Shown here piece by piece: positions 2,363 to 53,100 of a stretch of DNA of 64,000 nt (its first letter is position 1; each line of letters starts with the position of its first letter). Both the position numbers and the translations under genes were made by a program. The notes under the pieces were generated by a model. The model made no database searches. It was not told where the DNA came from and worked only from the letters and a program-made list of their open reading frames with translations. Source of the DNA: an uncultured Bacteroidota bacterium (lineage in GTDB: Bacteria > Bacteroidota > Bacteroidia > UBA4408); the NCBI GenBank assembly GCA_903831265.1, contig CAIKXD010000068.1, forward strand, positions 5,198 to 69,197, read 5' to 3'.

Positions 2363-2363
2363 A

Positions 2364-3206: not shown

Positions 3207-3207
3207 A

Positions 3208-3768
3208 ATGGTTAGGTTTTTTTATTTTGCTTTTATTTTACTCACTAATACTTTATTGAGTGCAAGTAACATGAATGATATAAAACAACTGAGACAGGAA
3301 TTTAATTTAGCTATTGAAGACAGTAAAAAAGCAAGTAATTTATATGAAGAATTGTTGAAATTGAAACCTGCTATTAATACGCTTCAGTATGCCTATTTAG
3401 GAGCTACAGAAGCTCTTTTGGCTAAACATAGCTTTAATCCTTTTTCAAAATTGAGTTATGTAAACAACGCACTAACCAAGCTAAATAAAGCAGTAGCATT
3501 AAGCGACAACAATATTGAAATTAGATATATGCGTTTTTCAGTGGAAGCCAATATGCCGGCCTATTTAGGATATAGCAAACATGTGGTAGATGATAAAAAC
3601 ATATTGATAAAAGGATTAAAAAGCGCACTCATTAGCAAAGATAATAGTGAAATGTATATTGTTTTTGCCAATGGAATAATGACAAGTAACCATTGCAGCA
3701 AAGACGAGAAAATATTATTAACTAATATAATTGAAGCCTGTAATGAAGCTAAATTAATTAAAAAGTAA
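3208..3768 (+). CDS. hypothetical protein with N-terminal signal/anchor, co-transcribed with crtIB
   Basis: ORF begins 2 nt after the crtB stop. Hydrophobic N-terminus. No family recognised. Confidence 0.4.
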   Translation: MVRFFYFAFILLTNTLLSASNMNDIKQLRQEFNLAIEDSKKASNLYEELLKLKPAINTLQYAYLGATEALLAKHSFNPFSKLSYVNNALTKLNKAVALSDNNIEIRYMRFSVEANMPAYLGYSKHVVDDKNILIKGLKSALISKDNSEMYIVFANGIMTSNHCSKDEKILLTNIIEACNEAKLIKK

Positions 3769-11506: not shown

Positions 11507-13015
<1,509 letters not shown>

Positions 13016-13188
13016 TTAATGCGATTTTATTCTGTTTTTAATTACACAGGTTATTTAATTTCGGGCGCAAAAGTACACTTTTTTTGAGAGAAATAAGTTT
13101 ATTTTTAAAAAATATTGTTTTGGTAAAAAGTGTTGAAAATCAATGAACTATCCTGATTTATTTTAAAAAGCCCAACAAATAAGACATT

Positions 13189-35854: not shown

Positions 35855-37333
35855 TTGATGATGGAAATTAATAAAAAGTATTTAAACGTATTTTACATCT
35901 TTATTTTTTTAGCATATCTATTAACCCAATTTCCTTTTTTAAAAGCAGATTCAGATCTAGCCATAGCATCGGGCAGTAGGGGCGCATGGACAGATGAGGG
36001 CCTTTACACTGCGCCAATAAGAAATATAATAAATCAAGGCTACAACAATTTTACTAAAGAGCATTCTATTTTAAAAACGCCCTACGCTATTGTTACCCCA
36101 CTTTATTCGATTTTTCTGTATCCATTTTTTAAATTGTTTGGTATTAGTTTAGAGATGGCTAGGTTAATTACAGTGTTATTTTGTACATTTTTTATCTTTA
36201 TTATCTTTTATAAAAAAGACGCAAAGTTGATTGGTATCGCGTTTGTATTGTCAACTATGATGTTAAACCCAATACACCAATACACGCATTTATGCTTAGC
36301 CGAAATGTATGCTACATTGCTAATTATTGCTGCCATTGTGATAAGTGTTTACAATGTAAATTTAGGCTCTAATAAAGGATTGATTTTGATGTACACATTT
36401 TTAATTTGTGCTGTATTATTCAAAATTCAATTTATATATATTCTTCCTTTGCCTCTCTTTTTTTACGCATGGCAACTGTTGTTAAAAGAAAAGTCTTTTT
36501 CAAGGAAACAATTATTAAATGCTGTTGCAGTTATATCAATTATCTTATTGAGCATGTTTTTGCTGTGGTATCTGCCATTTAAGGAGGCGTGGAAATATAC
36601 CGGTAGTAGTTCTTCTGGGAGTATATCCTTAAAAACAATTAGCTTAGATATAGTTTTAAATAACCTAAATGTTTTTTTCTTTTCTGAAAGGTATTTCTTG
36701 TTTACCTTCCTATTCCTAATTTCTTTTGCTGCTTTTTTATATCATTATTCAAAAAAGAAATTACCAATAACCTATCTAAGATTAACTGAACTTATTCTAA
36801 TTTGGATACTGTTAGAATCACATAAAATAACGCTAACCTATTTACCTGTAAGATATCTTATAAGTTTTTATGCAGCAATGGGATTGTTTATTTCAGTGAT
36901 GTTCGCTTTTTATTTTAATCAAAACAAATTTTTGTACAAGATAATTGTATTCGTTTTTTTGATATCTTGTTTCGCATTTAATAACTATTTTTATATGCAG
37001 GCATTCAAATCTCGTGCTTATAAAGTGCATGAAATGAATGTATTTTTTAAGTCGATAGCAAAGAAGTCAGATATAGTTATTGGTCCGTGGGCTCCCGCTT
37101 TTACTTGGGAAACAAAGTGTACTACTTTTCCTATTTGGACTGTTTATACAGAAAATAAAAATATTTTAGAAGAATATAGTCCAAGTTTTATTGTTAGCGA
37201 ACACGATCAAAATGATTCGGGCGAAGCTTTTAAAAACGATAATTTGAATTTAAATACGATTGGGGATTCTTTAATTCAAACCCAAATTGGGCAATGGAAA
37301 ATAAATATCTATGCTGTAAAGAATAAAAAATAA
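35855..37333 (+). CDS. GT-C-fold glycosyltransferase (ArnT/PMT, GT39/GT83-like) polytopic membrane protein
   Basis: About 11 TM helices. First-loop 'GAWTDEGLY' acidic DE motif typical of GT-C transferases. Confidence 0.5.
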   Translation: MMMEINKKYLNVFYIFIFLAYLLTQFPFLKADSDLAIASGSRGAWTDEGLYTAPIRNIINQGYNNFTKEHSILKTPYAIVTPLYSIFLYPFFKLFGISLEMARLITVLFCTFFIFIIFYKKDAKLIGIAFVLSTMMLNPIHQYTHLCLAEMYATLLIIAAIVISVYNVNLGSNKGLILMYTFLICAVLFKIQFIYILPLPLFFYAWQLLLKEKSFSRKQLLNAVAVISIILLSMFLLWYLPFKEAWKYTGSSSSGSISLKTISLDIVLNNLNVFFFSERYFLFTFLFLISFAAFLYHYSKKKLPITYLRLTELILIWILLESHKITLTYLPVRYLISFYAAMGLFISVMFAFYFNQNKFLYKIIVFVFLISCFAFNNYFYMQAFKSRAYKVHEMNVFFKSIAKKSDIVIGPWAPAFTWETKCTTFPIWTVYTENKNILEEYSPSFIVSEHDQNDSGEAFKNDNLNLNTIGDSLIQTQIGQWKINIYAVKNKK

Positions 37334-37343
37334 AAACCTATTA

Positions 37344-40300
37344 TTAGCTAATATAGTTACTTGAATTAGCAAGTTTATTTTTAAGTTCTTCAATACGTTT
37401 AAGCTTGTTCGGCTGTCTTCTTCGTTTATTAGTTTCTGTAAAATATTGGTGTTTCTCAAGAAATGGGATTTGCATCTCATCCCATTGTTTGTCTGTTTGT
37501 ATTTTGCCAAATGAAATTAGTTCCTTTTTTAAAGATGCTGAAATTTCATAAAAATCTTCACGCCCTAAATAATCCAAATCAGCATCACACATAATCATTT
37601 CTAGAAGCGTTTTTGGATTTTGGGGTATTTCAGTAGCCATAATAATGGCATCAATAATATCGATTTGACGCTCAGTATAGCCATATTTTGGTAGCACCTC
37701 ACGTGCGAATGTAACTCCAATTTTTTCATTCTTTACATACTCTTGTACAAAACCTGCATCATGAAAAAGTGCAGCAGTTTTTAATAAAAATAAATCTTCA
37801 CCATCAACACCTTCTTCTCTTGCAATTTCTTCGGCAGAGTTTGTTACATCAATTGTGTGATGAATGCCATGATAATAAAGCCCTTCAGGTAGTCTTTCTG
37901 CCAGTAGTTTTAGAATACGTGCTTCAGATTTTTTGAAACTGAATTTATCAAGTAGCAATTGAGAAAATTTCTCGTTAAATAATTCGTTTGGAGTCATGCC
38001 TTCTGTATCTGATGAAAGTTCAGGTCTAATTTTTTCCACAAAATACATCTCAATATCGCCTTTGTTTTTAGCTGCAATTTTTCCTCTGTAAGTGCAAACA
38101 AAAAAATCTTTAATGTACTCATATGTAGCCTTTGTTATATTAACCTTGCCCGCCTCTCCACTACTTTCAGTTCTGCTCGCGGTATTTACAGTGTCGCCCC
38201 AAATATCAAAAGCAAATTTAGTTTTTCCTATGACACCTGCAATAATTTCTCCTGTATTTATTCCTAATCTTAATTTCCACTCATACTTTTTTCCTTCAAT
38301 TTCTATAAACGCACCACGCATAAAATGCTGTATTTCTAGCGCTGCTAATACAGATTCTATAGGGTTACTTTTATTTCTAATAGGAATTCCACCCGCGCAC
38401 ATATATGAATCTCCAATTGTTTTGATTCTTTCCATGTTGTATTTTCCTACAATTTCATCAAATTTACTAAAGTACTTGTCTAATTCATCAATTAATTGTT
38501 GTGGTCGTAACTTCTCAGCAATCTTGGTAAATCCTTGAAAATCGGTAAACATAACTGTACACATACTATAATTCCTTGGTCTAGAAAAGCCTTTGTTTAT
38601 AAGTTCCTCAGCAGTTTCTTTCGGTAAAATACTGTGTACTAAACTTTCTGTTTTCTTTTTTTGCTCTTCAATAATCGACTTCTGCGCCTCAATTTCTTCT
38701 TTTTGTTTCATTACGGTGGCTGTGCGTTCTCTTATTTGATTTTCGAGAAATCTTTTCTGTTTAACCACCCTATTTAAGCGCTGCCTATTGTAAAAATATA
38801 TTATAGCAGCTAACATAATAACAACCAATAATCTAAACCACCATGTTTTCCAAAAGGGTGGTGTTATCCTAATTTGAATAGTAGCGGCTGTCTTGCTCCA
38901 AACGCCATCTGAATTAGAACCCAAAACTTTAAATACATATTCACCTGGCTCCAAATTAGTGTAATTTGCTTGGTTTTGCGTACCAACATAATTCCAATCT
39001 TCATCTAAACCTTCCATCATATATTTAAACTCATTATTCTCGGGTGATGAAAAATGAAGCGCAGAAAAATCAAATGAAAAGAAATTTTGCTTGTAGGAAA
39101 GTACAATTTCTTCGGCATAGGTTATGCTTTTTTTTAGCACCTTACTTTTGTTTGCCTCAACCGGTTGATTAAATATCATTAAGGCTGTAATAACAATTCT
39201 TGGTGCAATTGTATCATGCAGTATTTGGTTTGGAAAAAATGCGTTAAATCCTTCTACACCACCAAAAAACAATTCCCCTTTTTCTGATTTAAAAGCTGCT
39301 CCACTATTAAATTCATTGCTTTGTAAACCGTCATTCTCATAATAGTTAGCGATGGTTGAATCGTTTAACCTAAGTTTAATTAAACCATTATTGGAGCTAC
39401 ACCATAATACATTCGAATTTTCTTTTAAAATACTGTAAATGGTGCTATTTTGGATGCCTTCTAGGTAGGCACATCGGTTTACTTTTCCTGATGAAATATC
39501 TAAATTATTTAAACCACCACCATAAGTTCCAAGCCACAAGCTGCCTTCATTTATTTGCGATATACTTAAAATATTATTGTTGCTCAATGTGTTTTCAACA
39601 TCTTGATTAGAAAGGTATTTTACAAAATAAATTTTATCGGTTATTCCTTTTGTTTCTTTTATATAGTCCACCCTGTTTAATCCTCCACCATTGGTGCCAA
39701 CCCATATATTTCCATTCAAATCTTCAAAAATGGCTCTAATATCATTGTTTGATATAGATTGCTTAGAATTACTATTGTTAACATAATGTTCAATAGTTCG
39801 GTTTTTTAAGAATATTTTATAGAGCCCTTCTTTTGTCCCAATCCATAAATTATTTTTAGAGTCGAGCGTAAGGCACAACATAAATTTTTCTCTCAAATAA
39901 TCAATTTCCTTTTTATTTAGTTTAAACGGAATAATTTTATGATTAACGATATTGTATTCAAATAATCCTCGCTCGCAACCTACCAATAAGATATTTTCGG
40001 ATAAACGCTGTATACAAGTTACCGCTGTTGAAACCGACTTTATAGTTGATGGCATTTCGATGGTAAAACTAACACCAGTTTCTCTGTCAAATACAGTTAA
40101 GCCACCATCGCTTCCAATGTAAGATATGTTACTTGTAACATCGTCATAAATACTCCAAACATTGTTGGTAGCGTTGGTTAAATTAAAATTTATGCGTGGT
40201 GTAAAAAGCTTAAATTTATTTTGAATTCTATCAAATTTATTAATGCCAGATTCTGTTCCAACCCACATCGTGCCTGTCTTGTCTTCATAAATGCAATTTA

Positions 40301-41264
40301 CTTTATTGCCATTAATTCCTTTTCTGTTTTCAGGTGAATACTGAAAACGAGCAAAATTATTTGGCTTGTTGTTGTACTTATTAAGTCCTCCAAAAGTGGC
40401 CAACCATATTGTTCCCGAATAATCTCTGTAAATATCTTTTACAACATTGTTACTTAAACTATTTGGTTTAAGTGCATCATTTTGTACTACCTCTATACTC
40501 CCTGTTTTTTTGTTTAAAATGGTTAAGCCATTTTCTGTGCCTAACCAAAGCTGTGTGTTATCAAATTCAAAAATAGAAAATACACAATTGCTATTAAGGT
40601 TCCATTGTCGGTTTTTTTTAGATAACCTTGAATCCTTGTCATTAATATCATAAGCAATAATCCCTAAATTATTAGTTCCAATCCAAAGCGTTTTTTCTTG
40701 ATCAATAAATAAAGATTGTACAATGCTATTTTGTAAATTTTGTTGAAGAGTAATTGCTTTTAATTTGGATTTTTTTTCTCCAATATGCATTTCATACAAA
40801 CCATTATTAGCAGTAGCTGCATAAAGTATATTGTTGTGAATTAATAATGCGGTAAACTTTTGTTTAAGCTCGCTTCCTTTATACTGTAATTGATATAATG
40901 TAAATTTTTCCGCTATTGGGTCAAACATATTCAATCCATTGTCAGTAGCAATCCATAAATTGCCTCTTTCATCGATTTTAATATCGTGAATAAAATTACT
41001 TGAAATGGAGTTGCTTTCTTTGGGATAATTCTTGTAGACGTTAAAATGATAGCCATCATATTTATTTAAGCCATCTTGGGTGCCAAACCACATAAAACCA
41101 TGCTTGTCCTGCACAACGCAGTTTACATAGCTCTGAGATAATCCATCGCGAATTCCTAAATGATCGAAGCTAAAATTATTTTTTTGAGCATATAAAAATG
41201 AATGTGCAACAAAAAATGCAAAAAGCAATACACACCTAACAATATTTAATTTTATTTGATTCAA
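37344..41264 (-). CDS. multidomain sensor: periplasmic two-component-regulator propeller repeats + Y_Y_Y, single TM, class III adenylate/guanylate cyclase, C-terminal HD phosphohydrolase domain
   Basis: Signal peptide, then about 14 'NxIxxIxxDxxGxLWIGTxxGLNxxD'-type Reg_prop repeats. Y_Y_Y region. TM 'WWFRLLVVIMLAAIIYF'. Coiled coil. Cyclase motifs 'VMFTDFQGFT', 'KTIGDSYM', 'GINTGEIIAGVIG', 'DIWGDTVNTASR'. HD motifs 'HGIHHTIDV' and 'LFHDAGF'. Confidence 0.8.
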   Translation of the reverse strand: MNQIKLNIVRCVLLFAFFVAHSFLYAQKNNFSFDHLGIRDGLSQSYVNCVVQDKHGFMWFGTQDGLNKYDGYHFNVYKNYPKESNSISSNFIHDIKIDERGNLWIATDNGLNMFDPIAEKFTLYQLQYKGSELKQKFTALLIHNNILYAATANNGLYEMHIGEKKSKLKAITLQQNLQNSIVQSLFIDQEKTLWIGTNNLGIIAYDINDKDSRLSKKNRQWNLNSNCVFSIFEFDNTQLWLGTENGLTILNKKTGSIEVVQNDALKPNSLSNNVVKDIYRDYSGTIWLATFGGLNKYNNKPNNFARFQYSPENRKGINGNKVNCIYEDKTGTMWVGTESGINKFDRIQNKFKLFTPRINFNLTNATNNVWSIYDDVTSNISYIGSDGGLTVFDRETGVSFTIEMPSTIKSVSTAVTCIQRLSENILLVGCERGLFEYNIVNHKIIPFKLNKKEIDYLREKFMLCLTLDSKNNLWIGTKEGLYKIFLKNRTIEHYVNNSNSKQSISNNDIRAIFEDLNGNIWVGTNGGGLNRVDYIKETKGITDKIYFVKYLSNQDVENTLSNNNILSISQINEGSLWLGTYGGGLNNLDISSGKVNRCAYLEGIQNSTIYSILKENSNVLWCSSNNGLIKLRLNDSTIANYYENDGLQSNEFNSGAAFKSEKGELFFGGVEGFNAFFPNQILHDTIAPRIVITALMIFNQPVEANKSKVLKKSITYAEEIVLSYKQNFFSFDFSALHFSSPENNEFKYMMEGLDEDWNYVGTQNQANYTNLEPGEYVFKVLGSNSDGVWSKTAATIQIRITPPFWKTWWFRLLVVIMLAAIIYFYNRQRLNRVVKQKRFLENQIRERTATVMKQKEEIEAQKSIIEEQKKKTESLVHSILPKETAEELINKGFSRPRNYSMCTVMFTDFQGFTKIAEKLRPQQLIDELDKYFSKFDEIVGKYNMERIKTIGDSYMCAGGIPIRNKSNPIESVLAALEIQHFMRGAFIEIEGKKYEWKLRLGINTGEIIAGVIGKTKFAFDIWGDTVNTASRTESSGEAGKVNITKATYEYIKDFFVCTYRGKIAAKNKGDIEMYFVEKIRPELSSDTEGMTPNELFNEKFSQLLLDKFSFKKSEARILKLLAERLPEGLYYHGIHHTIDVTNSAEEIAREEGVDGEDLFLLKTAALFHDAGFVQEYVKNEKIGVTFAREVLPKYGYTERQIDIIDAIIMATEIPQNPKTLLEMIMCDADLDYLGREDFYEISASLKKELISFGKIQTDKQWDEMQIPFLEKHQYFTETNKRRRQPNKLKRIEELKNKLANSSNYIS

Positions 41265-41285: not shown

Positions 41286-42827
41286 TTACAATGGTATGTT
41301 GCCATGCTTTTTACGTGGCAAATTATCTACCTTATTTTTCAGCATTTTAAAGGCTGTAATCAGTTTTTCTCTTGTGTCTTCTGGCATAATAACTTCATCA
41401 ATATAGCCTCTTTCGGCAGCGCGATAAGGATTTGCAAAATGTTCTATATACTCCATTTCCTTTTCTTTTAGCTTAGCGGCTGGATCTTTTGCTGCCGAAA
41501 TTTCCGACTTAAAAATAATCTCAGCAGCGCCTTTGGCTCCCATTACAGCTATTTCAGCAGTAGGCCAAGCATAATTCATATCAGCTCCAATATGCTTGCT
41601 ATTCATTACATCATAGGCACCACCGTAGGCTTTTCTTGTAATCACTGTAATTCTTGGCACAGTTGCTTCGCAAAATGCATATAGCAATTTAGCACCATTA
41701 CTTATAATGCCATTCCATTCTTGATCAGTTCCTGGCAAAAATCCCGGTACATCTTCAAAAACTAATAATGGGATATTAAACGAATCGCAGAACCTAACAA
41801 ATCTTGCCGCTTTGTTAGATGATTTAATATCAAGCACGCCAGCTAAAAATGCTGGCTGATTAGCAATAATACCAATGCTTTTTCCACCTAAGCGTGCAAA
41901 ACCAACCACTATATTTTCTGCATAGTTTTTATGAACCTCTAAAAAACTATCAGTATCAATTACCTCTTGAATTACTTCACGCATATCATAAGGTTGATTT
42001 GCATTTTCAGGAATCAAACTGTTTAATTTAGGTCTCTTTTCGTTACCAATCTCATAGGCAATTGCAGGCGCTTCTTCCTCACAATTTTGAGGCATATAGC
42101 TTAACAAGGCTTTTATATTGTTAATGCATTCTATTTCATTTGCACATGAAAAATGTGTTACACCCGATTTGGTGCTGTGTGTAGATGCACCTCCTAATTC
42201 TTCACTACTTACTTCTTCATGAGTAACTGTTTTAACCACATTAGGCCCAGTAACAAACATATACGAAGTGTTTTCAACCATCATAATAAAATCAGTAATG
42301 GCAGGAGAGTAAACAGCACCTCCTGCACATGGTCCCATAATAGCTGATAACTGTGGAATCACACCCGATGCCCTTGTGTTTTTATAAAAGATATCTGCAT
42401 AACCTCCTAATGACACCACACCTTCTTGAATACGTGCGCCACCACTGTCGTTTAATCCAATTACAGGCGCGCCATTTTGCATGGCCAAATCCATTATTCT
42501 GCAAATTTTTTCTGCATGTGTTTCACTTAATGAACCACCAAAAACTGTAAAATCTTGAGAAAAAACATACACCAATCGACCATTGATAGTGCCATAACCT
42601 GTTACAACACCATCACCTAAATATTTTTCACGTTCTAACCCAAATTCATTTGAGCGGTGGGTTACCATCATCCCAATTTCCTGGAAAGACCCCTCATCCA
42701 TTAAAAAGTGTAAACGCTCTCTGGCAGTTAGTTTTCCTTTCTTATGCTGCGATGCAACGCGTGTTTCGCCACCTCCTAGTTGTGCTTCTTTTATTTTTTG
42801 CTGAAGTAAATCAGTTGCTATAGTCAT
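41286..42827 (-). CDS. acyl-CoA carboxylase carboxyltransferase subunit (propionyl-CoA carboxylase beta / methylmalonyl-CoA carboxyltransferase family)
   Basis: 513 aa. Tandem crotonase-fold carboxyltransferase domains. 'GGARIQEG' and 'GPCAGGAVYSPA' motifs. Confidence 0.9.
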   Translation of the reverse strand: MTIATDLLQQKIKEAQLGGGETRVASQHKKGKLTARERLHFLMDEGSFQEIGMMVTHRSNEFGLEREKYLGDGVVTGYGTINGRLVYVFSQDFTVFGGSLSETHAEKICRIMDLAMQNGAPVIGLNDSGGARIQEGVVSLGGYADIFYKNTRASGVIPQLSAIMGPCAGGAVYSPAITDFIMMVENTSYMFVTGPNVVKTVTHEEVSSEELGGASTHSTKSGVTHFSCANEIECINNIKALLSYMPQNCEEEAPAIAYEIGNEKRPKLNSLIPENANQPYDMREVIQEVIDTDSFLEVHKNYAENIVVGFARLGGKSIGIIANQPAFLAGVLDIKSSNKAARFVRFCDSFNIPLLVFEDVPGFLPGTDQEWNGIISNGAKLLYAFCEATVPRITVITRKAYGGAYDVMNSKHIGADMNYAWPTAEIAVMGAKGAAEIIFKSEISAAKDPAAKLKEKEMEYIEHFANPYRAAERGYIDEVIMPEDTREKLITAFKMLKNKVDNLPRKKHGNIPL

Positions 42828-42907
42828 ATGTATGTTAAATTATCGACAAACTTAAATCAAATTTAGGTAAATTAAAACCATGTTTTTTAAATGCTTTATA
42901 TATTCTA

Positions 42908-43621
42908 TTATTCTAACTCCCAAACAATTTGTACCTCATCATTCAATTCAATATCATCTGGTGTAAATCCTTGCAAAGCTCCTTGACCGCTGTCTTCTGC
43001 CATCATCATTCCTCTTGTTCTAGTCAGTGGATATGGGGCAATATTGGCAACTTGACCATAATCAATGGCTTTAATCGCTTTTATTTTTACACCCGATTCA
43101 GTTGCTAAATGATTGGCTTTTAATTTGGCGTCCTTCACAGCAAGTTTTATCAAGGTAGCTTCGGTTTGTTTGCTTAAGGTATCAGATAGCATAAAGTTAA
43201 AATGCATGTTGTAATCTGCCTTGTTATCTGAAAAGGTATTTAAAATTTTGGCTACTTTTTCTTTGCTGTAATTAAACTTTACCTGTAAACTTTGGGTAGC
43301 AAAATATCCGCTGTCTTTGGCAGCACCTCTGCGGTAAACCGAATGTTTATTTAACTGAAAATTAGTCGTTTTTATATCCTTTTCATTTAAGCCGGAAGCA
43401 ACAATTTGTTTTATTAGTTCTTTTGTTTTTTTATCTAAACCAAGCATTGCTTGATTTACGTCTGACCCAATAAAATTAGCACTTAAATTAAGCATTCCTT
43501 CATCGGGTTGCAATTTTAAATTAGAAACGCCCTTAACACTCATTGTTGCCACGTTTTTTTTGTCTTGTGCACAAAGCAAAAAACTTTGAACGAGCAATAA
43601 AATTGTAATGATCTTTTTCAT
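42908..43621 (-). CDS. SIMPL-domain (DUF541/BP26-like) periplasmic protein
   Basis: Signal peptide starting at the Met at 43621. 'MSVKGVSNLKLQPDEGMLNL' opening and the overall SIMPL pattern. About 237 aa. Confidence 0.6.
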   Translation of the reverse strand: MKKIITILLLVQSFLLCAQDKKNVATMSVKGVSNLKLQPDEGMLNLSANFIGSDVNQAMLGLDKKTKELIKQIVASGLNEKDIKTTNFQLNKHSVYRRGAAKDSGYFATQSLQVKFNYSKEKVAKILNTFSDNKADYNMHFNFMLSDTLSKQTEATLIKLAVKDAKLKANHLATESGVKIKAIKAIDYGQVANIAPYPLTRTRGMMMAEDSGQGALQGFTPDDIELNDEVQIVWELE

Positions 43622-43634
43622 ATGATAGTTATTT

Positions 43635-44554
43635 TTAATTTGAAGTTTTTTTAGCATAAGTATTTCGTCCAACTCTTACTCTAAAACCTATTCCAGGCAC
43701 AATAGTTATTCCTTTAAAGGCAAAAGAACTACCATTTAATAATTGGTAGCTACCATAGTTTTGATAAAACATAGAAAGTGAAGGAATTACAAAAACATGT
43801 TGAAAACCCACTTTCGCATTGATAAAGAATCCGTACGACATATACTTTTGCTGATAATTTTGAGGCAGAATAGAAGTTTTGTCTAAGTTATAGATATCTA
43901 TGGGAGTGGATGAATAATTTACAATGGAATAATTAGCTGCTAAACCCCATGATAAAGAACCATACTCTTCCTCATTGCCAAAAGAATAACTAAACAAGAC
44001 AGGCATAAAAAAATCTTTTCTGTTAAAGTTATATCCTAAGCGATCTTGCAAATATGAAAGAACCGATGGCAATGATTGACTTTGTGTTGTAATTTGCAAT
44101 CCAATACTTCCATAAATTTGTTTTGTTGTTTTATCATCTACATTTCCTGTGGGGCCCATAAATTGAAACTGAGTTTCTAAACCCCTTGCATTGCCTGCTA
44201 ATTTAGCGCCAATATCCCATCTTTTAAACACACCATATTTTAAATAAAATTCGTTACCGCTACTTATAGGATCTAACTGATAGGCTATAGCTGCCTTGTT
44301 TATATTTATAAAGTTTTCATCAAACTTTATACTATCCTTTAGAGCTAAATCTTCTATGTTATTTACAAGTAGGTCCTTAACATATAAGCTTGCTTGAGTA
44401 GAAATGTTATATGAAGTATGGTAACCTCCCGCAAAATTTCCTTTCGGAGTTACCTTGCCCGAATTGGAAATAACCCTTGGTGCCACGCATGAAGCCAAAG
44501 TTAAAACTGAAAATAAAAATAACATTACTTGCTTAAGCATACCCGTTTTTTGCA
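43635..44554 (-). CDS. hypothetical lipoprotein / outer-membrane protein
   Basis: Start taken at 'MQKTGMLKQVMLFLFSVLTLASC' (lipobox LASC). The longer ORF to 44786 would overlap the divergent rsmB-like gene and has an aberrant N-terminus. Confidence 0.4.
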
Positions 44555-44643
44555 TAACAAAGAAATGAATTTTAAATGGAAAAAAAACACAATGTTGATG
44601 GTTAAATCTATTAATTACCTTTACGCCAAATTTTAATACCAAT

Positions 44644-45885
44644 ATGAACAAGGATTTCAAGGGAGGAAAAAGAAAGGTGGTACTCGACCACAAAATACTC
44701 ACAAAGAATATTGCAGCTGTAATACGCGATGTAATTAAGGAAGGAACAAACTTAGACAAAGCACTTGAAAAAGTGATGAAGGCCAATAAAAAATGGAATT
44801 TTAGAAATAGAACTTACATTTATGAAACATGTAGTGATATGATTCGCTATTGGCGATTAATAGCCACAGCAGCCGATGCCGACAAAAATTTTACCGACAG
44901 CCAGTTTTATAGAATTTATGCAGCATGGTTTGTCTTCAGAGATAAAGAACTACCAATGCTACCTGCATTTAAAGAGGTAAATACCGATACCATTGAGCAA
45001 CGATTAAGAAAATACGAAAAAATTACCAAAATAAGAGAATCTTATCCCGATTGGATGGATGATTTATGCAAGCAGCAATTAGGTGCGGCGTGGGAAAAAA
45101 TGGCTATTGCGCTCAACCACGAACCTAAAATGATTTTAAGAGCTAACACCATTAAAACAAGCGTAAAGCAACTACAAGATATACTTACCGAGCATCAAAT
45201 TGAGAATAACATTGTACCCTGGAGCCCTTATGCTGTTGAATTAGTGTTTAGAAGAAATGTATTTCGTTTGCCCGAATTTAAAGAAGGTTTTTTTGAGGTA
45301 CAAGATAGCGCCTCGCAGATGGTAGCCGACTTTCTGCAGGTAAAACCTGGAATGCGTGTAATTGATGCTTGCGCTGGAACCGGCGGAAAAAGCCTTCATC
45401 TAGCTGCTTTAATGCAAAACAAAGGACGTTTAATTGCACTCGATAACAAAACTTTTAAACTAGAAGAACTTAAGAAAAGAGCGCGGAGAGCTGGCGTTTC
45501 TATTATCGAAACCAAAGAAATAGAAAGTACAAAAACAACCAAAAGATTAGTAAGCACAGCCGATCGTTTGCTTTTAGATTTACCTTGTTCTGGTTTAGGT
45601 GTATTGCGCAGAAATCCTGATGCCAAATGGAAGTTGCAACCACAAGAAATTACCAACCTTATTGCACAACAAAGAGAAATTATGGAACGCTTTGCACCAA
45701 CAGTAAAACCTGGTGGAAAAATGGTATATGCCACCTGCAGCATTTTACCTATGGAAGGTGAAGATCAAATTAAGTGGTTTGTTGAAAAGCATGCAGAACA
45801 TTGGATACTGGAGGGCGAAAAAAGATATGCACCCACACAGTTTGATGCCGATGGCTTTTACATGGCCTTGCTCACAAGGAAATAA
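44644..45885 (+). CDS. rRNA cytosine-C5 methyltransferase (RsmB/RsmF, NOL1/NOP2/Sun family)
   Basis: SAM motif 'RVIDACAGTGGKSLHLAA', 'DLPCSGLGVLRRNPD' and catalytic Cys 'YATCS'. Confidence 0.8.
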   Translation: MNKDFKGGKRKVVLDHKILTKNIAAVIRDVIKEGTNLDKALEKVMKANKKWNFRNRTYIYETCSDMIRYWRLIATAADADKNFTDSQFYRIYAAWFVFRDKELPMLPAFKEVNTDTIEQRLRKYEKITKIRESYPDWMDDLCKQQLGAAWEKMAIALNHEPKMILRANTIKTSVKQLQDILTEHQIENNIVPWSPYAVELVFRRNVFRLPEFKEGFFEVQDSASQMVADFLQVKPGMRVIDACAGTGGKSLHLAALMQNKGRLIALDNKTFKLEELKKRARRAGVSIIETKEIESTKTTKRLVSTADRLLLDLPCSGLGVLRRNPDAKWKLQPQEITNLIAQQREIMERFAPTVKPGGKMVYATCSILPMEGEDQIKWFVEKHAEHWILEGEKRYAPTQFDADGFYMALLTRK

Positions 45886-45926
45886 TATATTAACACACTT
45901 TTAAAAATAGATTTTACTTATTGTAT

Positions 45927-45934
45927 TATCTTTG
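45927..45934 (+). promoter_or_regulatory. TATCTTTG -7 box upstream of sod
   Basis: Matches TAnnTTTG, 42 nt before the ATG. Confidence 0.35.
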
Positions 45935-45975
45935 AAATCAAAATCTATCATTAATCATCTTTAAATTTAAATACT

Positions 45976-46581
45976 ATGGCTTTTGAATTACCTAAATTGG
46001 CTTATGCCTACAATGCACTTGAATCAAATATTGATGCTAAAACAATGGAAATCCATCATACTAAACATCATCAAGCATATGTAAACAATGTAAACGCTGC
46101 TATTGCAGGTACCGATGCAGATAAATTAAGTGTAGAAGAAATTTGTGCAAACATTTCTAAGTATCCAATGGCCGTTAGAAATAATGGTGGCGGACATTAC
46201 AATCACTCCTTGTTTTGGACCATCATGGGGCCAAATGGTGGCGGCAATCCAACAGGAGAACTCAATGATGCCATCAATGCAGCTTTTGGTTCATTCGATA
46301 AACTTAAAGAAGATTTTAATAAGGCTGCTACCACAAGATTTGGCTCAGGCTGGGCTTGGTTAATTGTACATAACGGTAAATTAATGGTTACCTCTACGCC
46401 AAATCAAGATAACCCCTTAATGGATATTGCAGAGGTTAAAGGCACACCAATTTTAGCCTTAGATGTGTGGGAACATGCCTACTATTTAAATTACCAAAAC
46501 CGCAGACCCGACTATATTAACGCATTTTGGAATGTAATTAACTGGACCGAAGTAGCTGCAAGATTTAAAGCAGCAAAATAA
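45976..46581 (+). CDS. sodA: Fe/Mn superoxide dismutase
   Basis: '[12 protein letters not shown]...[12 protein letters not shown]' and 'DVWEHAYY' metal ligands. 201 aa. Confidence 0.95.
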
Positions 46582-46589
46582 TTTCTTTT

Positions 46590-46643
46590 AGCGTCATTGA
46601 TTGATTTATATGATACAATATACTTTAATCAATGACGCTTTTT
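46590..46643 (+). terminator. Rho-independent terminator of sod
   Basis: 13-bp perfect stem 'agcgtcattgatt'/'aatcaatgacgct' followed by TTTT. Confidence 0.7.
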
Positions 46644-46656
46644 AATTTCAATACAA

Positions 46657-47082
46657 TTGCAAAGTAAATTTTTTCTTTCCTTCTTCTTTTTTATAATGCT
46701 AATTGGCACATCAAAGGCTAGTAATAGCCAATCAGATGCAGTGTTAAGTACATTCAAACACCTCGTCATTAATGAAAGTGAGTTGGCTACACAAGAAGTA
46801 AAACTTCCCTCAGAAAAAAAAATAAAATTAATTGCCCTTCTTCAAAGCGCTACTGTAGAAAATAAAAAAGTAACTGCAGCCATATTAACCCTAACTCTTG
46901 GTATGCTTGGTGTTCACCGAATTTATTTAGGCACCGCACCCTACATTCCAGCAGTATATTTGTTCACTTTTGGCGGAGGTTTTTTTGTGCTGCCCATCAT
47001 TGACTTGATAATGATACTAACCACCAACGACATCGCAAAATTCGAAAACAACAACAAAATCTTAATGTGGACAGGAGAGTAA
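46657..47082 (+). CDS. TM2-domain membrane protein
   Basis: Signal peptide followed by 'GMLGVHRIYLG...GGGFFVLPIIDLI', a two-helix TM2 signature. Confidence 0.6.
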   Translation: MQSKFFLSFFFFIMLIGTSKASNSQSDAVLSTFKHLVINESELATQEVKLPSEKKIKLIALLQSATVENKKVTAAILTLTLGMLGVHRIYLGTAPYIPAVYLFTFGGGFFVLPIIDLIMILTTNDIAKFENNNKILMWTGE

Positions 47083-47106: not shown

Positions 47107-50100
47107 TTAATCTCTAGGAGTTAAAATCACTTTTATTGTTTTATTCAAGTACTCATCACTAATACTTAAATAATAAACACCAGTGACAACTTCGTCAAAT
47201 GCTATAAATTGCGTGTTCCCTTGCTTACTTGTTGAAATCTTTTTGCTGTACACAAGTTTACCTGTAACATCACATAAACTTAAATTAATGAATTCCGACT
47301 TTAATGCAGCTGTTGTTAAATTAATTCCATTTAAATTTGAAGGATTAGGGTAAACGGACCAATTTTCACCTTGGGCTGGTTTTATAAAGTTTACTGCTTT
47401 TACATCACTATATTCAAATTTACCGTCAAAATCTATTTGCATAAGTCTGTAATAAGACAAACCTTCATAAGGTTCAAAATCCATTGCCTTGTAATTTAGT
47501 ATTGTGTTGCTATTTCCAGCCCCATCAATTAAAGCAAAAGAAGCAAAATTAACACCGTCAATAGAGCGCTCAATCTTAAAATAATCATTGTTTGTCTCGC
47601 TCGCTGTTGTCCATGTTAATTCAATATTTTCAAGTACTGGCTGAGCATCAAAATTAATTAAACTAATTGGTAATGGAGAGCCATTCCCATTTGCTGTGAA
47701 ATCACTAAAAGAATATAAACCATTCCAAGTAATTGTCCTAGTGCCTGGATTTACTGATCCTGTGCCCATTTCAAAATTTGAACCAGAACCTAAAGCTGCA
47801 ATCCATCCTTGTGGGTTATGTTTAAATGGCTTTAAATTAGCAGTTATTGGTGCTGTGCCTTCATCTGCTGCAGCCCACTTATAGGTAACTCCATACCCTA
47901 TTTGAGTAGTAGGAAAATTACTTGGCTCTACTTGCCAGTAGCGCGATAAATAATTAGTAGATGTTCCCATACTTGGGTGAACCGATGGAATTACATTAAC
48001 ACTCACTTGGGAAGTAGCGCTCATTGGACCTTCATACAGCGATAAAGTCATTGGTGTATAATTAATTGCATCTCCAACAGGATAATTATAACTTGTGTTT
48101 GCTGTGGTTGTATATCTCACCAATTTTGCTGCGGCCAATCCCGAAATAAAATATTCATTGGCAGAACCCCCAGCTAATGATCCATTAACACCTGTAGTTC
48201 CAATAGTAAAAACATTACCATTCAAATCAACCTTGCCACTAATAAGGCCAACAGAATTTAATGCATTTACATTTCCATTTAGTATAACATTTCCTGTAAC
48301 AGGACTAAAATCTAAATCGTAAAATGTTTCTAAAGTTACACCAGCATTTATAGTTATTGATTGATCACCTATAATTTGCTTATCGAAAACTACTTTTTTA
48401 CTGTTATGAGTAAACGCACTAGATGCCCCCGTTCTTGTCCAATTGCCTCCTATCGAAAATACTCCTGTGTAGGCTGGGCTTAGCGTAAAGGTTCCATTTG
48501 TAATGGTAAGGTTTCCTCTCAAGGCCCTTGTGTTTTGCATCTGCAAATCAGTGCCAATGTCTTTTACTTCCACATTCCACGGGATACCCGGATTGCCTGA
48601 TCCAATTGCACCTGTAGCCCATGTTTTATCATTAACGCCTACCTGATAATCAACAGTATTTGCAAATCGCAATAGTGAATTAATTCCGTAATAGCATGGG
48701 TTAAGTGTTTGACCTACCGAGCCAGCTAACATTACCTGCAAAACGCCATTAATAGTGGTTGGATTTCCTGAACCAAAATCAACAGCACCATCGCCAATCC
48801 GAACCAACACGTTACTATCAAAGTTCAATAAAGTACCACCAAAAGAACTCACTGTCTTGGTAAAAAGTAAAGGTGAGTTTCCGCCTTGGCCAGTAATATC
48901 AAAAGTACCTCCCAAAGAGCCAACAATCGACCTTGTTCCACCTCCACTTATTGTTATGCTTCCTGCAAAAGATGGCGATGTTGCATTTCCTCTATCAGTA
49001 AATGTAAAAGTTGCTAAATCCAAATCACCACCACTCAAAATTAAATCTCTATTAATTGTTTTATTTTGATTAATAGTTAAAGTACCTAGTGTTATTTCAA
49101 GATCTCTTACTTTACTTAAATCTTGTATAAACTCTACTCCACTTGTCATAGTTGCATCGTAACGCAAATCATAGCTATTACCTGCACCAATAGTTGGCGA
49201 TGCGCTCATGGTTGCCGTGGCTGAACTTCTGCATATTTGTGATCCATTCGCCATAGTATTCGTAAAGCCATTTAATTCATAGGAGCCATTCGTTAATTTT
49301 AAACGGTTATTAATTGTGGTATTTGTATTGATGCGAACACTTGCTCCTACATTGTCTATGTTTAAATAACCAAAGGCAAATATGTTGTTACTGATGATTT
49401 GCTGCGTTGTCCCATTCATAGTTATCTCTCTTCCATTTTGTGTAAATGTTCCACCTGCATTGCGCGTTAAGTTACCTGCTATTTGTATATCGCCTCCTGC
49501 TGCAATACTCAAATTTAAAGCGCCTGTGCTTACTCCACCTATGCTTACATTGCCTTTTACGATTAAAGGATTTGACATTGCTCCCATGCTCAAGTTGCCG
49601 CCTTGGTTTATGTTTAAATTTCCAGCTATTTGTCGGGTTGCGCTGCCCCCATTGCTTAAATCTAATGTTGTTACAGTTCCATTTTCATCTATATCAACAT
49701 GGTAGGGATAACCGGGTCCGCTTGTTGCGCTCCATTCTAGGCCTCTTCCGTAGTTATTTCCACTAAAATATCTCAAAGTAGAACCTGCGGAATAGCTTGG
49801 TGCATTGCTATTCACAAAGCCGCCCAATGCTAATTCTAAGGTGCCTTTGATGGTACTTATTGAATTGCCAAAATTCATTCCTGCACTTAATGCAACTTTT
49901 ATATGCGGTGCAAACTCCAATGTGCCACCTAAGTTACTTATTACGCTTTTATTCGCTTGTATATTTAACTGCGCTCCGGGCAATGTGCTGATGATACTTC
50001 TTACCCCGCCACTCACTAAAATGCTTCCGCCTGCATTTACTAAATTAAGCTTGTTGCCATTCAAATCTAAAACTCCAATGTTGATTAATTGTAGGGCATT

Positions 50101-53100
50101 ACCTATACTTCCATTAATTGTAATATCGGTAATATCAATAGCATCTAACAATAAACTGCCAGAGGGTTTATCAAGCACCAGGTAATTAAAAGTTTCTGTT
50201 CCTCCACCTGTTACTGTGATGTTTTGGGTGCCCGAACGATTGAAAATGATCGCTTTGCCATTCGGATTAAAAATGCCATTTACACCACTTCTGTCCCAAT
50301 CTCCGTTAATATATAAGTTACCTCCACCCATGTTGAGCGTTCCATTATCGATTCCAATTGAGCCAGATAGACCGCGATCGCTAGCTGGCATATTTAAGGT
50401 TGTGTTGTTACTTATTCTTACATTGTTTGGTACGCCTAAACCTGCGGAGGTACTATTGCCTGTCCATTCCATATTTACTCCATAATTACCACCTGTGTTG
50501 TAACTCAAGGTGGAACTAGCGCCATACGTTGGGGGGGCGCTTAAACTGCTACCACTATTTAAAATCAATTCTCCATTTACGGTAAGTGGGGTGGATATTG
50601 TAGTTAAACCATTTAAATCTGCGTTGTTTATTATTAAAGCATTACCTCCTGCAAAGGTCCCTGCGCCATTAAAAACAATACTGCCCAAACCACTGATGGT
50701 GCTTACTGCTCCGCTGCTATTGGTTAAAGTACCTCCTATGCTATTAAAAATTAGCGATCTTGTTGCATCTATATTTAAGCTACCGCCTGCATTAATTGTA
50801 ACTGAACTTAGGGCATCAGTATTGCCGCCAGTAATTTGAACAGCATGACTTATACAGGCTGAGGAGGCTGCGGGTGGTATACTTCCTCCTGCCCATGTTG
50901 AGGTATTATTCCAAGCTCCAGGAGCTATAGTAGAGATACAATCTAATATGCCATTGATATTACCTATCACAAAAGGGCGGTTGTTTAAACTTCCTGTAAA
51001 AGTTGTACTTGAGCTGCTTAAATAGGGATTGCCTCCCGTTAAGACAGAGGCTCTGGCTTGCCAAAATAATCCAGTATAATCGCCTTGGAAAACACCATTG
51101 GCTCTTATAAAACCTGCTGCTTCTGCGCTCACAGGCCACTGAAAATTGCTAGATAAATTGTTGCCGCCTGCTATACTTTCATTGATGGTCCACTGTAAAT
51201 TAACCATTTGGTTATTGTCGTTTACTAATGGAGCAAAGGCGGGGGCAGTGTTTACTCTAATCATAATATCATCAACTGTGCCTGCTTGTTGCATTGTAAC
51301 AGGTGAATAGGTACTAGCATCTGGCCCTATTGGATAAAGTGTGGCAATATTGTTAAAGTTTCTAATTAATCTTCCGCTGCCATTGGTTACTATGTAATTA
51401 CTGGAGGATGCTCCAGTTAAAGGAGTATTTAAACCATTCATCTTTAAATTAAAGTTGCCCAAGGTTAATCGACCATTGCTAAGCGTTAATTGATTATCTA
51501 TTTCAACATTAACCGTGGTTAAGCTAACACCAGAAGCATTATTAATAGTTAAAAAGTCGAATGGATTTGTTGTTGTGTTTGTACCTCCAATATTCTGATT
51601 GCTAGTTCCATTAAAGGTAACGGATCTTAAATTTGGAAAGAAATTAACCAATGCTGTTCCATTGTTGTTCCAATTGCCTTTCAATTCAATGTCACCTCCA
51701 AAGGCCCCTGAACCTGATAAATTTCCTGATAAATTAATATCGCCATTTACAATCAAAGGAACGGTCATGTTATTTCCTGCAAAATCCATATAAATATTTG
51801 AACCAGCATCAATGGTTAAGTTGCCCGCTGTATTGAAAACGCTGCTGGTATTTACTCCAGCACCAGGATTAAGAGTAGTGTTATTACTAACTTGTACATG
51901 GCCAGGATAACCTCTTCCAGAAGAAGCACTCCATTCTAGGTTTCTGCCGTAAGCGCTTCCTGTAAAATACTGAAGTGTGGAATTAGCATTGTAAATAGGA
52001 GCACTTATATTTACAAATCCACCAGCATTAATTCTCAATGTTCCTCCACTTTGAATGGTGGTTGAATTGATACCAGCTCCAAAGTTAACTCCCCCATTGA
52101 TGGTAACATTATAAGGATTACTTACACCGGTAAAAGTTCCGGATCCAATAAAGTTTAAGGTGCCAGCATTGGTGCCTACAATAAAATTACTTGCTGTAGT
52201 AGCCACAGTAGCACCTACACTAAGATTAATTGTATTTGCGGCTCCCATATTAAATATACCGCTAGTTAAGGTGAGTGCGTTATTGATGGTGAAAGAAGCC
52301 GAGGTATTTGTTAAAGTACCCGACAAATTCATAATTACTTGCTCAGCAGTGCTTATAACAGGCACTGTATTAAAACCAGTATTTTGATTCACTCCATAAA
52401 ACTCATAAATTGAGCCGGTATTGAAATTCCTTGTGCCTGAGGGCGCCATGCCTACTATACCTGAGGCATGAGTGGTTCTGATTAAAGAGCCGGTGTTAGT
52501 TCTGAATTCATCAGCAGAGGCGCCACCATCACTTGTTGTTACTATAAAACCTTGTGCATCAAATGTGGCATTAACACCAACAGCTATATCACCATCGCTA
52601 ACAGAAAAATTAGAAAGTAATAACAAAGATTTACTATCAGCAATCACAAAATCAACATAGAAATTACTACCTCCTGTTTTAGAATAATTTTGAACTCCTG
52701 CACCATTGAAGGAAAAGGTAGGATTTATAGTATTACTTCCGGTTGATGAACACTGTATAAGGCCTCCTGTTGCTGTTAGATTGCCACTTAAATATACAAA
52801 ACCATCTCCTGTTCCAGCTACCGAAGTGTTGAAATCAAAACGACCTGCAGATTGAATCCAGTTTCCAAGTACATAAGTATTATTATTACTTAAATTTCCG
52901 CTATGTTGAGAAAATCTGGCATTGGCGTTGGTTAAATTCAGATTTCCATTGATGTACAAAGTAACACCTCCTAATGTTGTTGTTTGTTCAAACTGACCAC
53001 CGTTGAGCGTTAAATTTCCTGTTATACCATTAGTAATGCCTGCACCTCCCCATGTCCTGCTTGGTGTAAAAAGTCCTGTACCTTCAATAACAAGGTTGTG

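Follow-up and report, generated by a model that had tools for sequence, protein, structure and literature searches.

Layout of the reading frame

The DNA analysed here, referred to as the window, is a stretch of 64,000 nucleotides from contig CAIKXD010000068.1 (positions 5,198 to 69,197; assembly GCA_903831265.1) of an uncultured Bacteroidota bacterium. On its reverse strand, at 37344..41264, lies a gene whose predicted product joins an extracytoplasmic sensor to a class III nucleotidyl cyclase and a C-terminal HD domain. Coordinates are positions in the window, and residue numbers refer to the open reading frame (ORF) of 1306 amino acids. The frame is uninterrupted over its 1306 codons and opens with a TTG start codon; some gene calls use a TTG 12 codons downstream, giving a protein of 1294 amino acids. 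The exact protein is already present in NCBI/ENA, on a 94-kb contig. An initial annotation had described propeller repeats, a Y_Y_Y domain, a membrane helix, a cyclase and an HD domain on one polypeptide. All of these domains (Reg_prop, Y_Y_Y, Guanylate_cyc and HD) were found by Pfam within the single ORF, and the motifs that had been quoted, FTDFQGFT, KTIGDSYM, DIWGDTVNTASR, HGIHHTIDV and LFHDAGF, are all present in the translation. The features of the gene are as follows.

37344..41264, reverse strand: whole ORF, 1306 amino acids and stop codon; predicted receptor-type adenylate cyclase with a C-terminal HD domain
41184..41264, reverse strand: N-terminal hydrophobic segment, residues 1-27 (hydropathy and sequence)
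39075..41183, reverse strand: double beta-propeller region of Reg_prop repeats, residues about 28-730 (Pfam Reg_prop; PDB 4A2L, 3V9F and 3OTT)
38865..39053, reverse strand: Y_Y_Y (Ig-like) domain, residues 738-800 (Pfam PF07495, E 1.4e-19)
38787..38846, reverse strand: single transmembrane (TM) helix, residues about 807-826, TWWFRLLVVIMLAAIIYFY (hydropathy)
38577..38786, reverse strand: cytoplasmic signalling helix with a cyclase-transducer-like end, residues 827-896 (AlphaFold2, weak HNOBA match, alignment with AC8 and AC9)
38034..38573, reverse strand: class IIIa nucleotidyl cyclase catalytic domain, residues 898-1077 (PF00211; alignments with the C1 and C2 domains of AC8 and AC9)
37935..38033, reverse strand: conserved cyclase-HD linker, residues 1078-1110, IKPELS...G..PN..F (conservation among homologues; lower AlphaFold2 pLDDT)
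37347..37934, reverse strand: compact all-helical HD phosphohydrolase domain, residues 1111-1306 (PF01966, AlphaFold2, 2PQ7 profile, Foldseek)

Hydropathy analysis revealed two hydrophobic segments only, at residues 6-26 and 807-826. The protein is laid out as a signal peptide or anchor, about 780 extracytoplasmic residues, one TM helix and about 480 cytoplasmic residues. Residues 1-27 are possibly a signal peptide, with a possible cleavage between LYA and Q, or else an N-terminal membrane anchor. The single TM helix and coiled coil of the initial annotation correspond to the segment at 807-826 and to a long helix that AlphaFold2 placed between membrane and cyclase.

The periplasmic sensor

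Reg_prop repeats were matched several times over residues about 30-700 (Pfam, E 8e-43). The N-terminal 830 residues matched the solved periplasmic domains of hybrid two-component system (HTCS) proteins from Bacteroides thetaiotaomicron, with E 5.6e-103 for BT4663 (4A2L), 9e-83 for 3V9F and 3e-48 for 3OTT. The input module is, by these similarities, of the HTCS type, as had been claimed for the N-terminal two-thirds of the protein.

In the Bacteroides HTCS proteins BT4663 (4A2L/4A2M), BT3049 (3V9F) and BT4673 (3OTT), as in the window protein, Reg_prop propellers and a Y_Y_Y domain are followed by a TM helix. The window protein differs in its output, which is a cyclase and an HD domain: no HisKA/HATPase_c, receiver or AraC-type helix-turn-helix (HTH) DNA-binding domain was among its domain-model matches. 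With kinase, receiver and HTH domains absent, identity as an HTCS was ruled out. In other phyla the same sensor is joined to HisKA, HisKA_2 or HisKA_3 kinases, to hybrid kinases, and to a kinase-receiver-SpoIIE chain. The sensor is therefore a modular one, and the cyclase an alternative to the kinases that it drives elsewhere. The arrangement had been called a non-canonical signalling route; it does depart from the usual histidine-kinase output, but it is common and machine-annotated rather than rare.

The initial annotation also assigned the input module to glycan-binding sensors and suggested gating by an extracellular ligand. The sensor type agrees with a glycan, but the genomic context does not: the neighbours are housekeeping genes, and the gene differs from those of HTCS proteins in that no SusC/SusD or glycoside-hydrolase genes were found near it in the window. 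There is no polysaccharide-utilisation locus nearby, and a glycan ligand is suggested by analogy only.

The cyclase domain and its transducer

The cyclase domain matched PF00211 (Guanylate_cyc) over model positions 5-182 of 183, with E 2.3e-48 and 164.7 bits against a cut-off of 21.9. The nearest solved cyclases belong to class IIIa, namely mammalian AC8, AC9 and AC5 and the mycobacterial enzyme Cya/Rv1625c. In alignments with AC8 and AC9, D908 (in FTDF) and D952 (in IGDSYM) fall on the metal-binding aspartates of C1, K948 (KTIG) and D1020 (FDIWG) on the adenine-specifying Lys and Asp of C2, and N1027 and R1031 (TVNTASR) on the transition-state residues. Conservation was counted over 240 homologues, 120 of them full-length and 120 short forms without the sensor (P0001-P0120). 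D908, K948, D952, D1020 and N1027 were invariant in 240/240, and all six catalytic residues, R1031 included, were invariant in 120/120 full-length homologues. The cyclase had been described as intact, and the full catalytic hexad with no degenerate residues seen agrees with that description. Guanylate cyclases carry Glu/Cys or Glu/Ser at the Lys/Asp positions; Lys948/Asp1020 is the ATP-type pair, not Glu/Cys. By every sequence criterion tested the window protein is a class IIIa adenylate cyclase, and it is probably an active one. The six catalytic residues are contained in one domain, as expected for a homodimer with two active sites.

The short forms were more variable at the column of residue 1031, where Arg occurred in 59, His in 41, Ala in 15 and Gly in 3 of the 120; their other catalytic residues were invariant. 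Many short forms may thus be impaired or altered as cyclases while their HD domain is intact.

Residues 830-1306 were modelled with AlphaFold2 as a monomer from 125 sequences (pLDDT 87, pTM 0.56). The model contained one long helix running from the membrane to about residue 879 and a short second helix (fragment residues 2-50 and 53-62), followed by the cyclase fold. The stretch 827-896 aligned with the helices that precede C1 and C2 in AC8 and AC9, and residues 847-888 gave a weak Pfam match to the C-terminal part of HNOBA. A transducer segment is known from class IIIa/b cyclases, and both observations fit such a segment. The window protein shares with the receptor-type class IIIa adenylate cyclases (Rv1625c/Cya and the mammalian membrane enzymes) the subclass, the six catalytic residues and the upstream helical transducer. 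It differs from them in its sensor and membrane part, a large propeller module in the periplasm with a single TM helix in place of a 6-TM bundle, and in the HD domain that follows the cyclase. In the linker between the two cytoplasmic domains P1092 and F1096 are invariant and N1093 nearly so; this conservation therefore suggests that the cyclase and HD domains communicate.

The HD domain

PF01966 (HD) matched residues 1134-1229 (E 2.4e-8) and scored 34.7-38.7 bits, above its cut-off of 22. Apart from this model and HDIG, both generic, no model matched the domain, and the family-model searches yielded no dedicated Pfam or NCBIfam model for it. A separate AlphaFold2 model of residues 1085-1306 (pLDDT 93) was all-helical, with 13 helices forming a domain of about 190 residues. 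The domain carries the signature Y1131-H1132-x3-H1136, H1168-D1169, D1227-A-D-L-D-Y-L-G, W1261, Q1265, F1268, H1272, R1283 and K1287. Invariant in 240/240 homologues were Y1131, H1132, H1136, H1168, D1169, D1227, D1229, D1231, F1268, R1283 and K1287; H1272 was kept in 239/240, and Q1265 was replaced by Asn in about half of the short forms.

The putative metal ligands form an H...HD...D set of the mononuclear type, and a further His precedes the first ligand by four residues. The initial annotation had proposed a complete HD phosphohydrolase domain, and the ligand set H1136, H1168, D1169 and D1227 is indeed complete and, as above, invariant. Judged by this conservation, the HD domain is likely to be catalytic. 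The ligand core is common to several types of HD enzyme, and so the core chemistry alone cannot decide the substrate.

Partners of the HD subfamily

The HD domain was searched against 1.84 billion representative proteins, which returned 3599 relatives (E<=1e-3), of which 2536 reached E<=1e-10 and 558 reached E<=1e-30, counted as representative clusters. The best 150 (41-70% identical) were classified by BLAST and Pfam. About 100 of them also contain a class III cyclase, which may be N- or C-terminal to the HD domain, in the architectures propeller-Y_Y_Y-cyclase-HD, TPR-cyclase-HD, HD-PAS-cyclase, HD-cyclase and cyclase-AAA-TPR-HD. In a further arrangement, seen in 5 of the best 150, a domain that binds cyclic nucleoside monophosphates (cNMPs) directly follows the HD domain. 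These five comprise HD-cNMP_binding, HD-cNMP_binding-SpoIIE (two proteins), HD-cNMP_binding-HATPase_c and HD-cNMP_binding-HAMP; proteins with this and other architectures are P0266, P0306, P0289, P0381, P0372, P0309, P0319, P0358, P0342 and P0242. A phosphate-binding cassette reading FGE.SLLDTEPRSA, or a close form of it, is present in 4/5 of the fused cNMP-binding domains, P0372 having a variant with RVA. About 38 of the best 150 are stand-alone HD proteins of 193-276 amino acids; the genomic context of one of them, P0272, was uninformative. The HD signature is retained across all these architectures.

The HD domain thus flanks cyclases on either side and precedes cNMP receptors, and it is therefore most simply explained as an enzyme of cNMP turnover, which for an HD hydrolase would mean a phosphodiesterase (PDE). 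This association supports a role of the subfamily in cNMP turnover, most likely as a PDE. That the substrate is cyclic AMP (cAMP) we regard as close to an even chance, if anything slightly below it.

Relatives and alternative functions of the HD domain

The closest solved relatives of the domain were identified with a profile of 18 diverse members of the HD subfamily, searched against the PDB, and by structural comparison. The profile matched 2PQ7 (E 7.5e-6), BH2835 (3DTO; E 0.006) and Bacillus subtilis YpgQ (5DQV; E 0.06). The HD-GYP enzyme 4MCW gave marginal matches over the HD core (E 0.036-0.083), and class I PDEs matched over the H..H..HD stretch only (E 0.2-0.3). Foldseek placed 2PQ7 (E 1.8e-4) and YpgQ (E 1.4e-3) at the top with TMt 0.66-0.70; the 2PQ7/BH2835/YpgQ group as a whole spanned E 1.8e-4 to 6e-3 and TM 0.56-0.70. 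After 2PQ7 and YpgQ came many catalytic domains of PDE5, PDE4 and PDE2 (E 4e-3 to 3e-2, query TM 0.5-0.65). With the 2PQ7/BH2835/YpgQ group the window domain shares its compact size and the H-x3-H...HD...D ligands; it differs in being only about 20% identical, in having its own signature (DADLDYLG, W..Q..F, H.YFT, R and K), and in that its subfamily occurs in cNMP-signalling architectures. To our knowledge YpgQ is the sole characterised member of that group. No match to the C-terminal lid (residues about 1215-1301) was obtained by phmmer against the PDB, even at E<=10.

Eukaryotic class I PDEs (PDE4, PDE5, PDE2 and PDE9) share with the window domain the HD fold, the H-x3-H-x(25-35)-D spacing and mononuclear-type primary ligands, and the reaction proposed for the window domain is the one that they catalyse. 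The stretch H1132-x3-H1136-x32-D1169 agrees with H(X)3H(X)25-35(D/E), the minimal class I PDE motif (PMC4222275), which is non-discriminating since YpgQ-like proteins carry it too. The window domain differs from class I PDEs in its size, about 190 amino acids versus about 330 (16 helices), and in lacking both a PF00233 match and HDxxH. On the PF00233 result, the HDAGF sequence and the small size, membership of class I was rejected. Membership of the HD-GYP c-di-GMP phosphodiesterases was likewise rejected: neither a GYP motif nor an extended HHExxDGxGYP region is present in the window protein, and the sole link is the marginal match to 4MCW. Q1265-x-x-F1268 may resemble the Q-x-x-F motif that clamps the purine in class I PDEs.

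Several points weigh against a cAMP-hydrolysing HD domain in a glycan-gated receptor. By both profile and fold the nearest proteins are 2PQ7, BH2835 and YpgQ, the last a (d)NTP pyrophosphohydrolase. The domain is without the additional histidines listed for dinuclear HD phosphodiesterases (H...HD...H...HH...D; PMC8177086). It reads HDAGF in place of HDxxH, so that the HDxxHxGxxN signature of class I PDEs is missing, and Pfam PDEase_I (PF00233) gave no match even at E<=10. The Foldseek matches of the model to PDEs are weak, and PDEs are heavily represented among PDB structures. Fusion to cyclases places the domain in the same pathway but does not identify the bond that it cleaves. No cNMP-binding effector was detected in the window or in the 80 related loci with a small HMM built from the fused cNMP-binding domains, and the gene context lends no support to a glycan ligand. 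A literature search outside whose reach most subscription journals lay found no publication on the architecture, on fusions of cyclase and HD domains or on bacterial cAMP PDEs of the HD type.

The profile and fold matches are what would be expected if, with the cyclase as described above, the HD domain were a YpgQ-like pyrophosphohydrolase or nucleotidase whose substrates are (d)NTPs or nucleoside phosphates instead of cAMP; it might, for instance, trim the local ATP pool or remove a by-product. Domain size agrees with this, as does the spacing of 58 residues from HD to D, which is like that of YpgQ, as against about 117 in class I PDEs. YpgQ hydrolyses both NTPs and dNTPs, but weakly, with a kcat/KM of about 1e2 M-1 s-1 (PMC8177086), so that its true substrate is uncertain. 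Identity to YpgQ is low, as noted, and a general NTPase would have no obvious reason to be fused repeatedly to cyclases and cNMP-binding domains; we consider this explanation unlikely. HD domains also hydrolyse 2',3'-cNMPs, (p)ppGpp, cyclic dinucleotides and Ap4A (PMC8177086), and the synthesis of cAMP could be coupled to removal of one of these as a form of cross-talk. The H...HD...D core does not reveal the substrate, and there were weak profile matches to the HD-GYP enzyme (4MCW, E 0.08) and to YqeK. Against such a function, the GYP motif and the extended His set are absent, the model searches gave no SpoT/Rel or PgpH family match, and the recurrent partners are cNMP-specific rather than GGDEF, DAC or RelA domains, which makes it rather improbable.

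A non-enzymatic HD domain, serving as a regulatory, nucleotide-binding or dimerisation module for the cyclase, would account for the conserved linker, which suggests tight cyclase-HD coupling, and would be compatible with the uncertain relative placement of the two domains in the model (pTM 0.56). It is very unlikely given that the metal ligands together with D1229, D1231, R1283 and K1287 are invariant and H1272 nearly so, an active-site-like pattern that recurs in the roughly 38 stand-alone proteins of about 200 amino acids. As to the cyclase, a product other than cAMP (cGMP or a pyrimidine cNMP), possibly as part of a Pycsar-like anti-phage system, would be in line with weak PADLOC matches to PycC (E 3e-11). 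These scores lie far below the generic Guanylate_cyc score, Lys948/Asp1020 is an ATP-type pair, no effector gene adjoins, the neighbours are housekeeping genes and a periplasmic sensor is present; a different product is highly improbable on these grounds. The protein was rejected as a Pycsar cyclase, the PycC matches being weak and generic and an adjacent effector gene being absent.

Proposed activity of the protein

The reading that we prefer, a receptor class IIIa adenylate cyclase with a cAMP-hydrolysing HD domain on the same chain, has in our judgement about an even chance of being correct. Taking together the observed architecture, topology elements and conservation of catalytic residues, we infer the following scheme. 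The HTCS-type sensors of a dimer, each with two beta-propellers and a Y_Y_Y domain, would bind a ligand outside the cytoplasm. The signal would pass through one TM helix and a signalling helix of about 70 residues in each chain to a homodimeric cyclase with two complete ATP-specific active sites, which on activation would produce cAMP. The tethered C-terminal HD domain would be a metal-dependent phosphohydrolase from a separate subfamily, as yet unnamed, that serves cNMP signalling. It would hydrolyse cAMP to AMP, so that a local cAMP signal would owe its rise as well as its decay to one protein. Hydrolysis might act as a constant drain that sharpens and localises the signal, or might be regulated reciprocally with synthesis, as in Rel/SpoT and GGDEF-EAL proteins. 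The initial annotation had suggested a self-limiting pulse generator; this gains from the fusion of the HD subfamily to cyclases and cNMP-binding domains, but no family model names the HD domain a cAMP PDE and its nearest relatives are 2PQ7 and YpgQ.

Rel/SpoT enzymes combine an HD hydrolase with a synthetase, and GGDEF-EAL and GGDEF-HD-GYP proteins are bifunctional in second-messenger metabolism. The window protein resembles all of these in carrying a synthase and a putative hydrolase for one messenger on one polypeptide, and Rel/SpoT also in the HD fold of the hydrolase. It differs from Rel/SpoT and GGDEF-EAL in its proposed messenger, cAMP, and in its order, synthase then HD, with hydrolysis of the product being putative. 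By analogy, it would work most like a receptor adenylate cyclase that follows the synthase-hydrolase logic of Rel/SpoT and GGDEF-EAL.

Homologues and distribution

With the whole protein as query, at least 120 clusters (90% identity level) were obtained whose members are 1252-1345 amino acids long, have the same domains and are 40-98% identical to it. The existence of more than 120 full-length clusters, alike in length and domains over this range of identity, indicates that the gene is real and under constraint. The full-length homologues come mostly from Flavobacteriales and Bacteroidales. Among GTDB species representatives they were found in Crocinitomicaceae (Fluviicola, Lishizhenia, Taishania and Brumimicrobium), in Vicingus and in other Flavobacteriales, and Bacteroidales forms had a more divergent first propeller; the closest homologue among the species-representative genomes is 49% identical. 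A sister set of about 510-530 amino acids has a short N-terminus, one TM helix, a helical linker, a cyclase and an HD domain, and is 55-66% identical over the common part. Carriers of this short form include Marinifilum and Ancylomarina longa, and Crocinitomix is among those of the long form. Since this set lacks the sensor, the conserved core is therefore TM-helix-cyclase-HD, and the propeller is one of several inputs.

Many of these proteins bear the automatic IMG name 'ligand-binding sensor domain-containing protein/class 3 adenylate cyclase/HD superfamily phosphohydrolase'. The architecture is common and widespread in Bacteroidota, and its three parts are already listed by automated annotation. 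Taken singly, the gene in the window is unremarkable within its large family, and it is the family, above all its HD subfamily, that is of interest.

Gene neighbourhood

In the window the gene is surrounded by genes for a Mur ligase, LepA, a nucleotidyl transferase, a 492-amino-acid protein, a carboxyltransferase, SIMPL, RsmB, SodA and a TM2 protein. Its TTG start lies 21 bp past the stop codon of the upstream carboxyltransferase gene, and with so short a gap co-transcription of the two is therefore possible. The block TM2 protein-SodA-RsmB-SIMPL-carboxyltransferase-target (41286-47082 in the window) is kept at L084:2953-7980, a locus of GCA_945872355.1 whose homologue is 81% identical to the target and whose downstream side differs from the window. 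Two ORFs, at 35855-37333 on the forward strand (492 amino acids) and 43635-44786 on the reverse strand (383 amino acids), gave no Pfam or PADLOC match, and neither is kept beside homologues in other loci; the first converges on the 3' end of the target, 10 bp away. An antisense ORF of 148 amino acids (38092-38538, forward strand) lies inside the part coding for the cyclase and linker. Similar ones occur in five other loci, and it is most likely a by-product of conserved coding sequence and not a gene. A giant ORF of 4023 amino acids (47107-59178, reverse strand) carries a type IX secretion system sorting domain (Por_Secre_tail) at its C-terminus and hardly any other Pfam match; its product is a very large secreted or surface protein. 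The sorting domain and the taxonomy of the homologues of the target place the genome in Bacteroidota, near Flavobacteriales. An Rfam scan of the window returned nothing, and a scan for sigma-70 promoters and terminators, with a model ill-suited to Bacteroidota, stayed at background level.

In related loci a gene for a tandem universal stress protein (Usp, PF00582, about 274 amino acids) recurs near the cyclase-HD gene. The distance is no more than about 500 bp in about 26 of 61 loci and no more than 7 kb in 35 of them. At least three arrangements, in several orders, were seen. In Crocinitomicaceae the Usp gene lies downstream in convergent orientation, in Bacteroidales, Marinifilum and Ancylomarina it lies upstream in divergent orientation, and some loci have a second copy downstream. 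Examples are L003:8261-9094, L038:6200-7030, L056:6758-7585 and L085:10007-10837, all on the reverse strand. The motif GTHGxxGxQxxTGS, one residue shorter than the Usp ATP-binding motif, is present in 28/38 copies. No Usp homologue was found in the window by tblastn. Some Usp proteins bind cAMP, and the tandem Usp is therefore a candidate partner or effector.

A ferritin gene (PF00210, about 172 amino acids) lies directly upstream on the same strand, with a gap of 6-60 bp, in about 17 Crocinitomicaceae loci, such as L012:7443-7961 and L021:1837-2355, both on the forward strand. These loci have an RNase R gene further upstream and, downstream, a gene for a protein of about 508 amino acids that may belong to the GH3 family. 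The ferritin linkage is probably lineage synteny, and may be an operon link to iron storage. At L010:16433-17722 (forward strand) a second class III cyclase of 429 amino acids, without an HD domain, is encoded 4.5 kb downstream of a propeller-cyclase-HD gene. The cyclase-HD gene of L085, a contig of 5.9 Mb, lies within 4 kb of two genes for SpoIIE-type phosphatases, HAMP-SpoIIE and TPR-SpoIIE (1946-3748 and 11812-13902, both forward strand), as well as Usp and HSP20 genes. This context brings to mind the fusions HD-cNMP_binding-SpoIIE and may point to a role in stress or partner switching.

Significance

Signalling by cAMP is poorly charted in Bacteroidota; when the first four genomes of the phylum had been sequenced, an early census counted no adenylate cyclases in them (PMC1183210). 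The known bacterial cAMP phosphodiesterases have metallophosphoesterase (class III) or metallo-beta-lactamase (class II) folds, and Myxococcus PdeA and PdeB are discussed among the class III enzymes (PMC4222275). Tentatively, and with somewhat less than even confidence, we suggest that the C-terminal domain represents an unrecognised, widespread bacterial class of HD-type 3',5'-cNMP phosphodiesterase with a compact, 2PQ7/YpgQ-like fold, functionally parallel to class I PDEs. Such a class would comprise stand-alone forms of about 200 amino acids, cyclase-fused forms and cNMP-binding-fused forms, and the window protein would both write and erase cAMP under the control of an extracellular ligand.

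If the HD subfamily degrades cAMP, an HD-type PDE class would be added to those of bacteria, with the 2536 representative clusters at E<=1e-10 as its extent. The co-travel of the domain with cyclases and cNMP-binding domains would be explained, and the bifunctional Rel/SpoT and GGDEF-EAL enzymes would have a cAMP counterpart. A sensor that is known from HTCS proteins as a glycan receptor linked to transcription would here drive a diffusible second messenger instead. Flavobacteriales and Bacteroidales would then possess a cAMP network, possibly read by the tandem Usp proteins that are often encoded next door.

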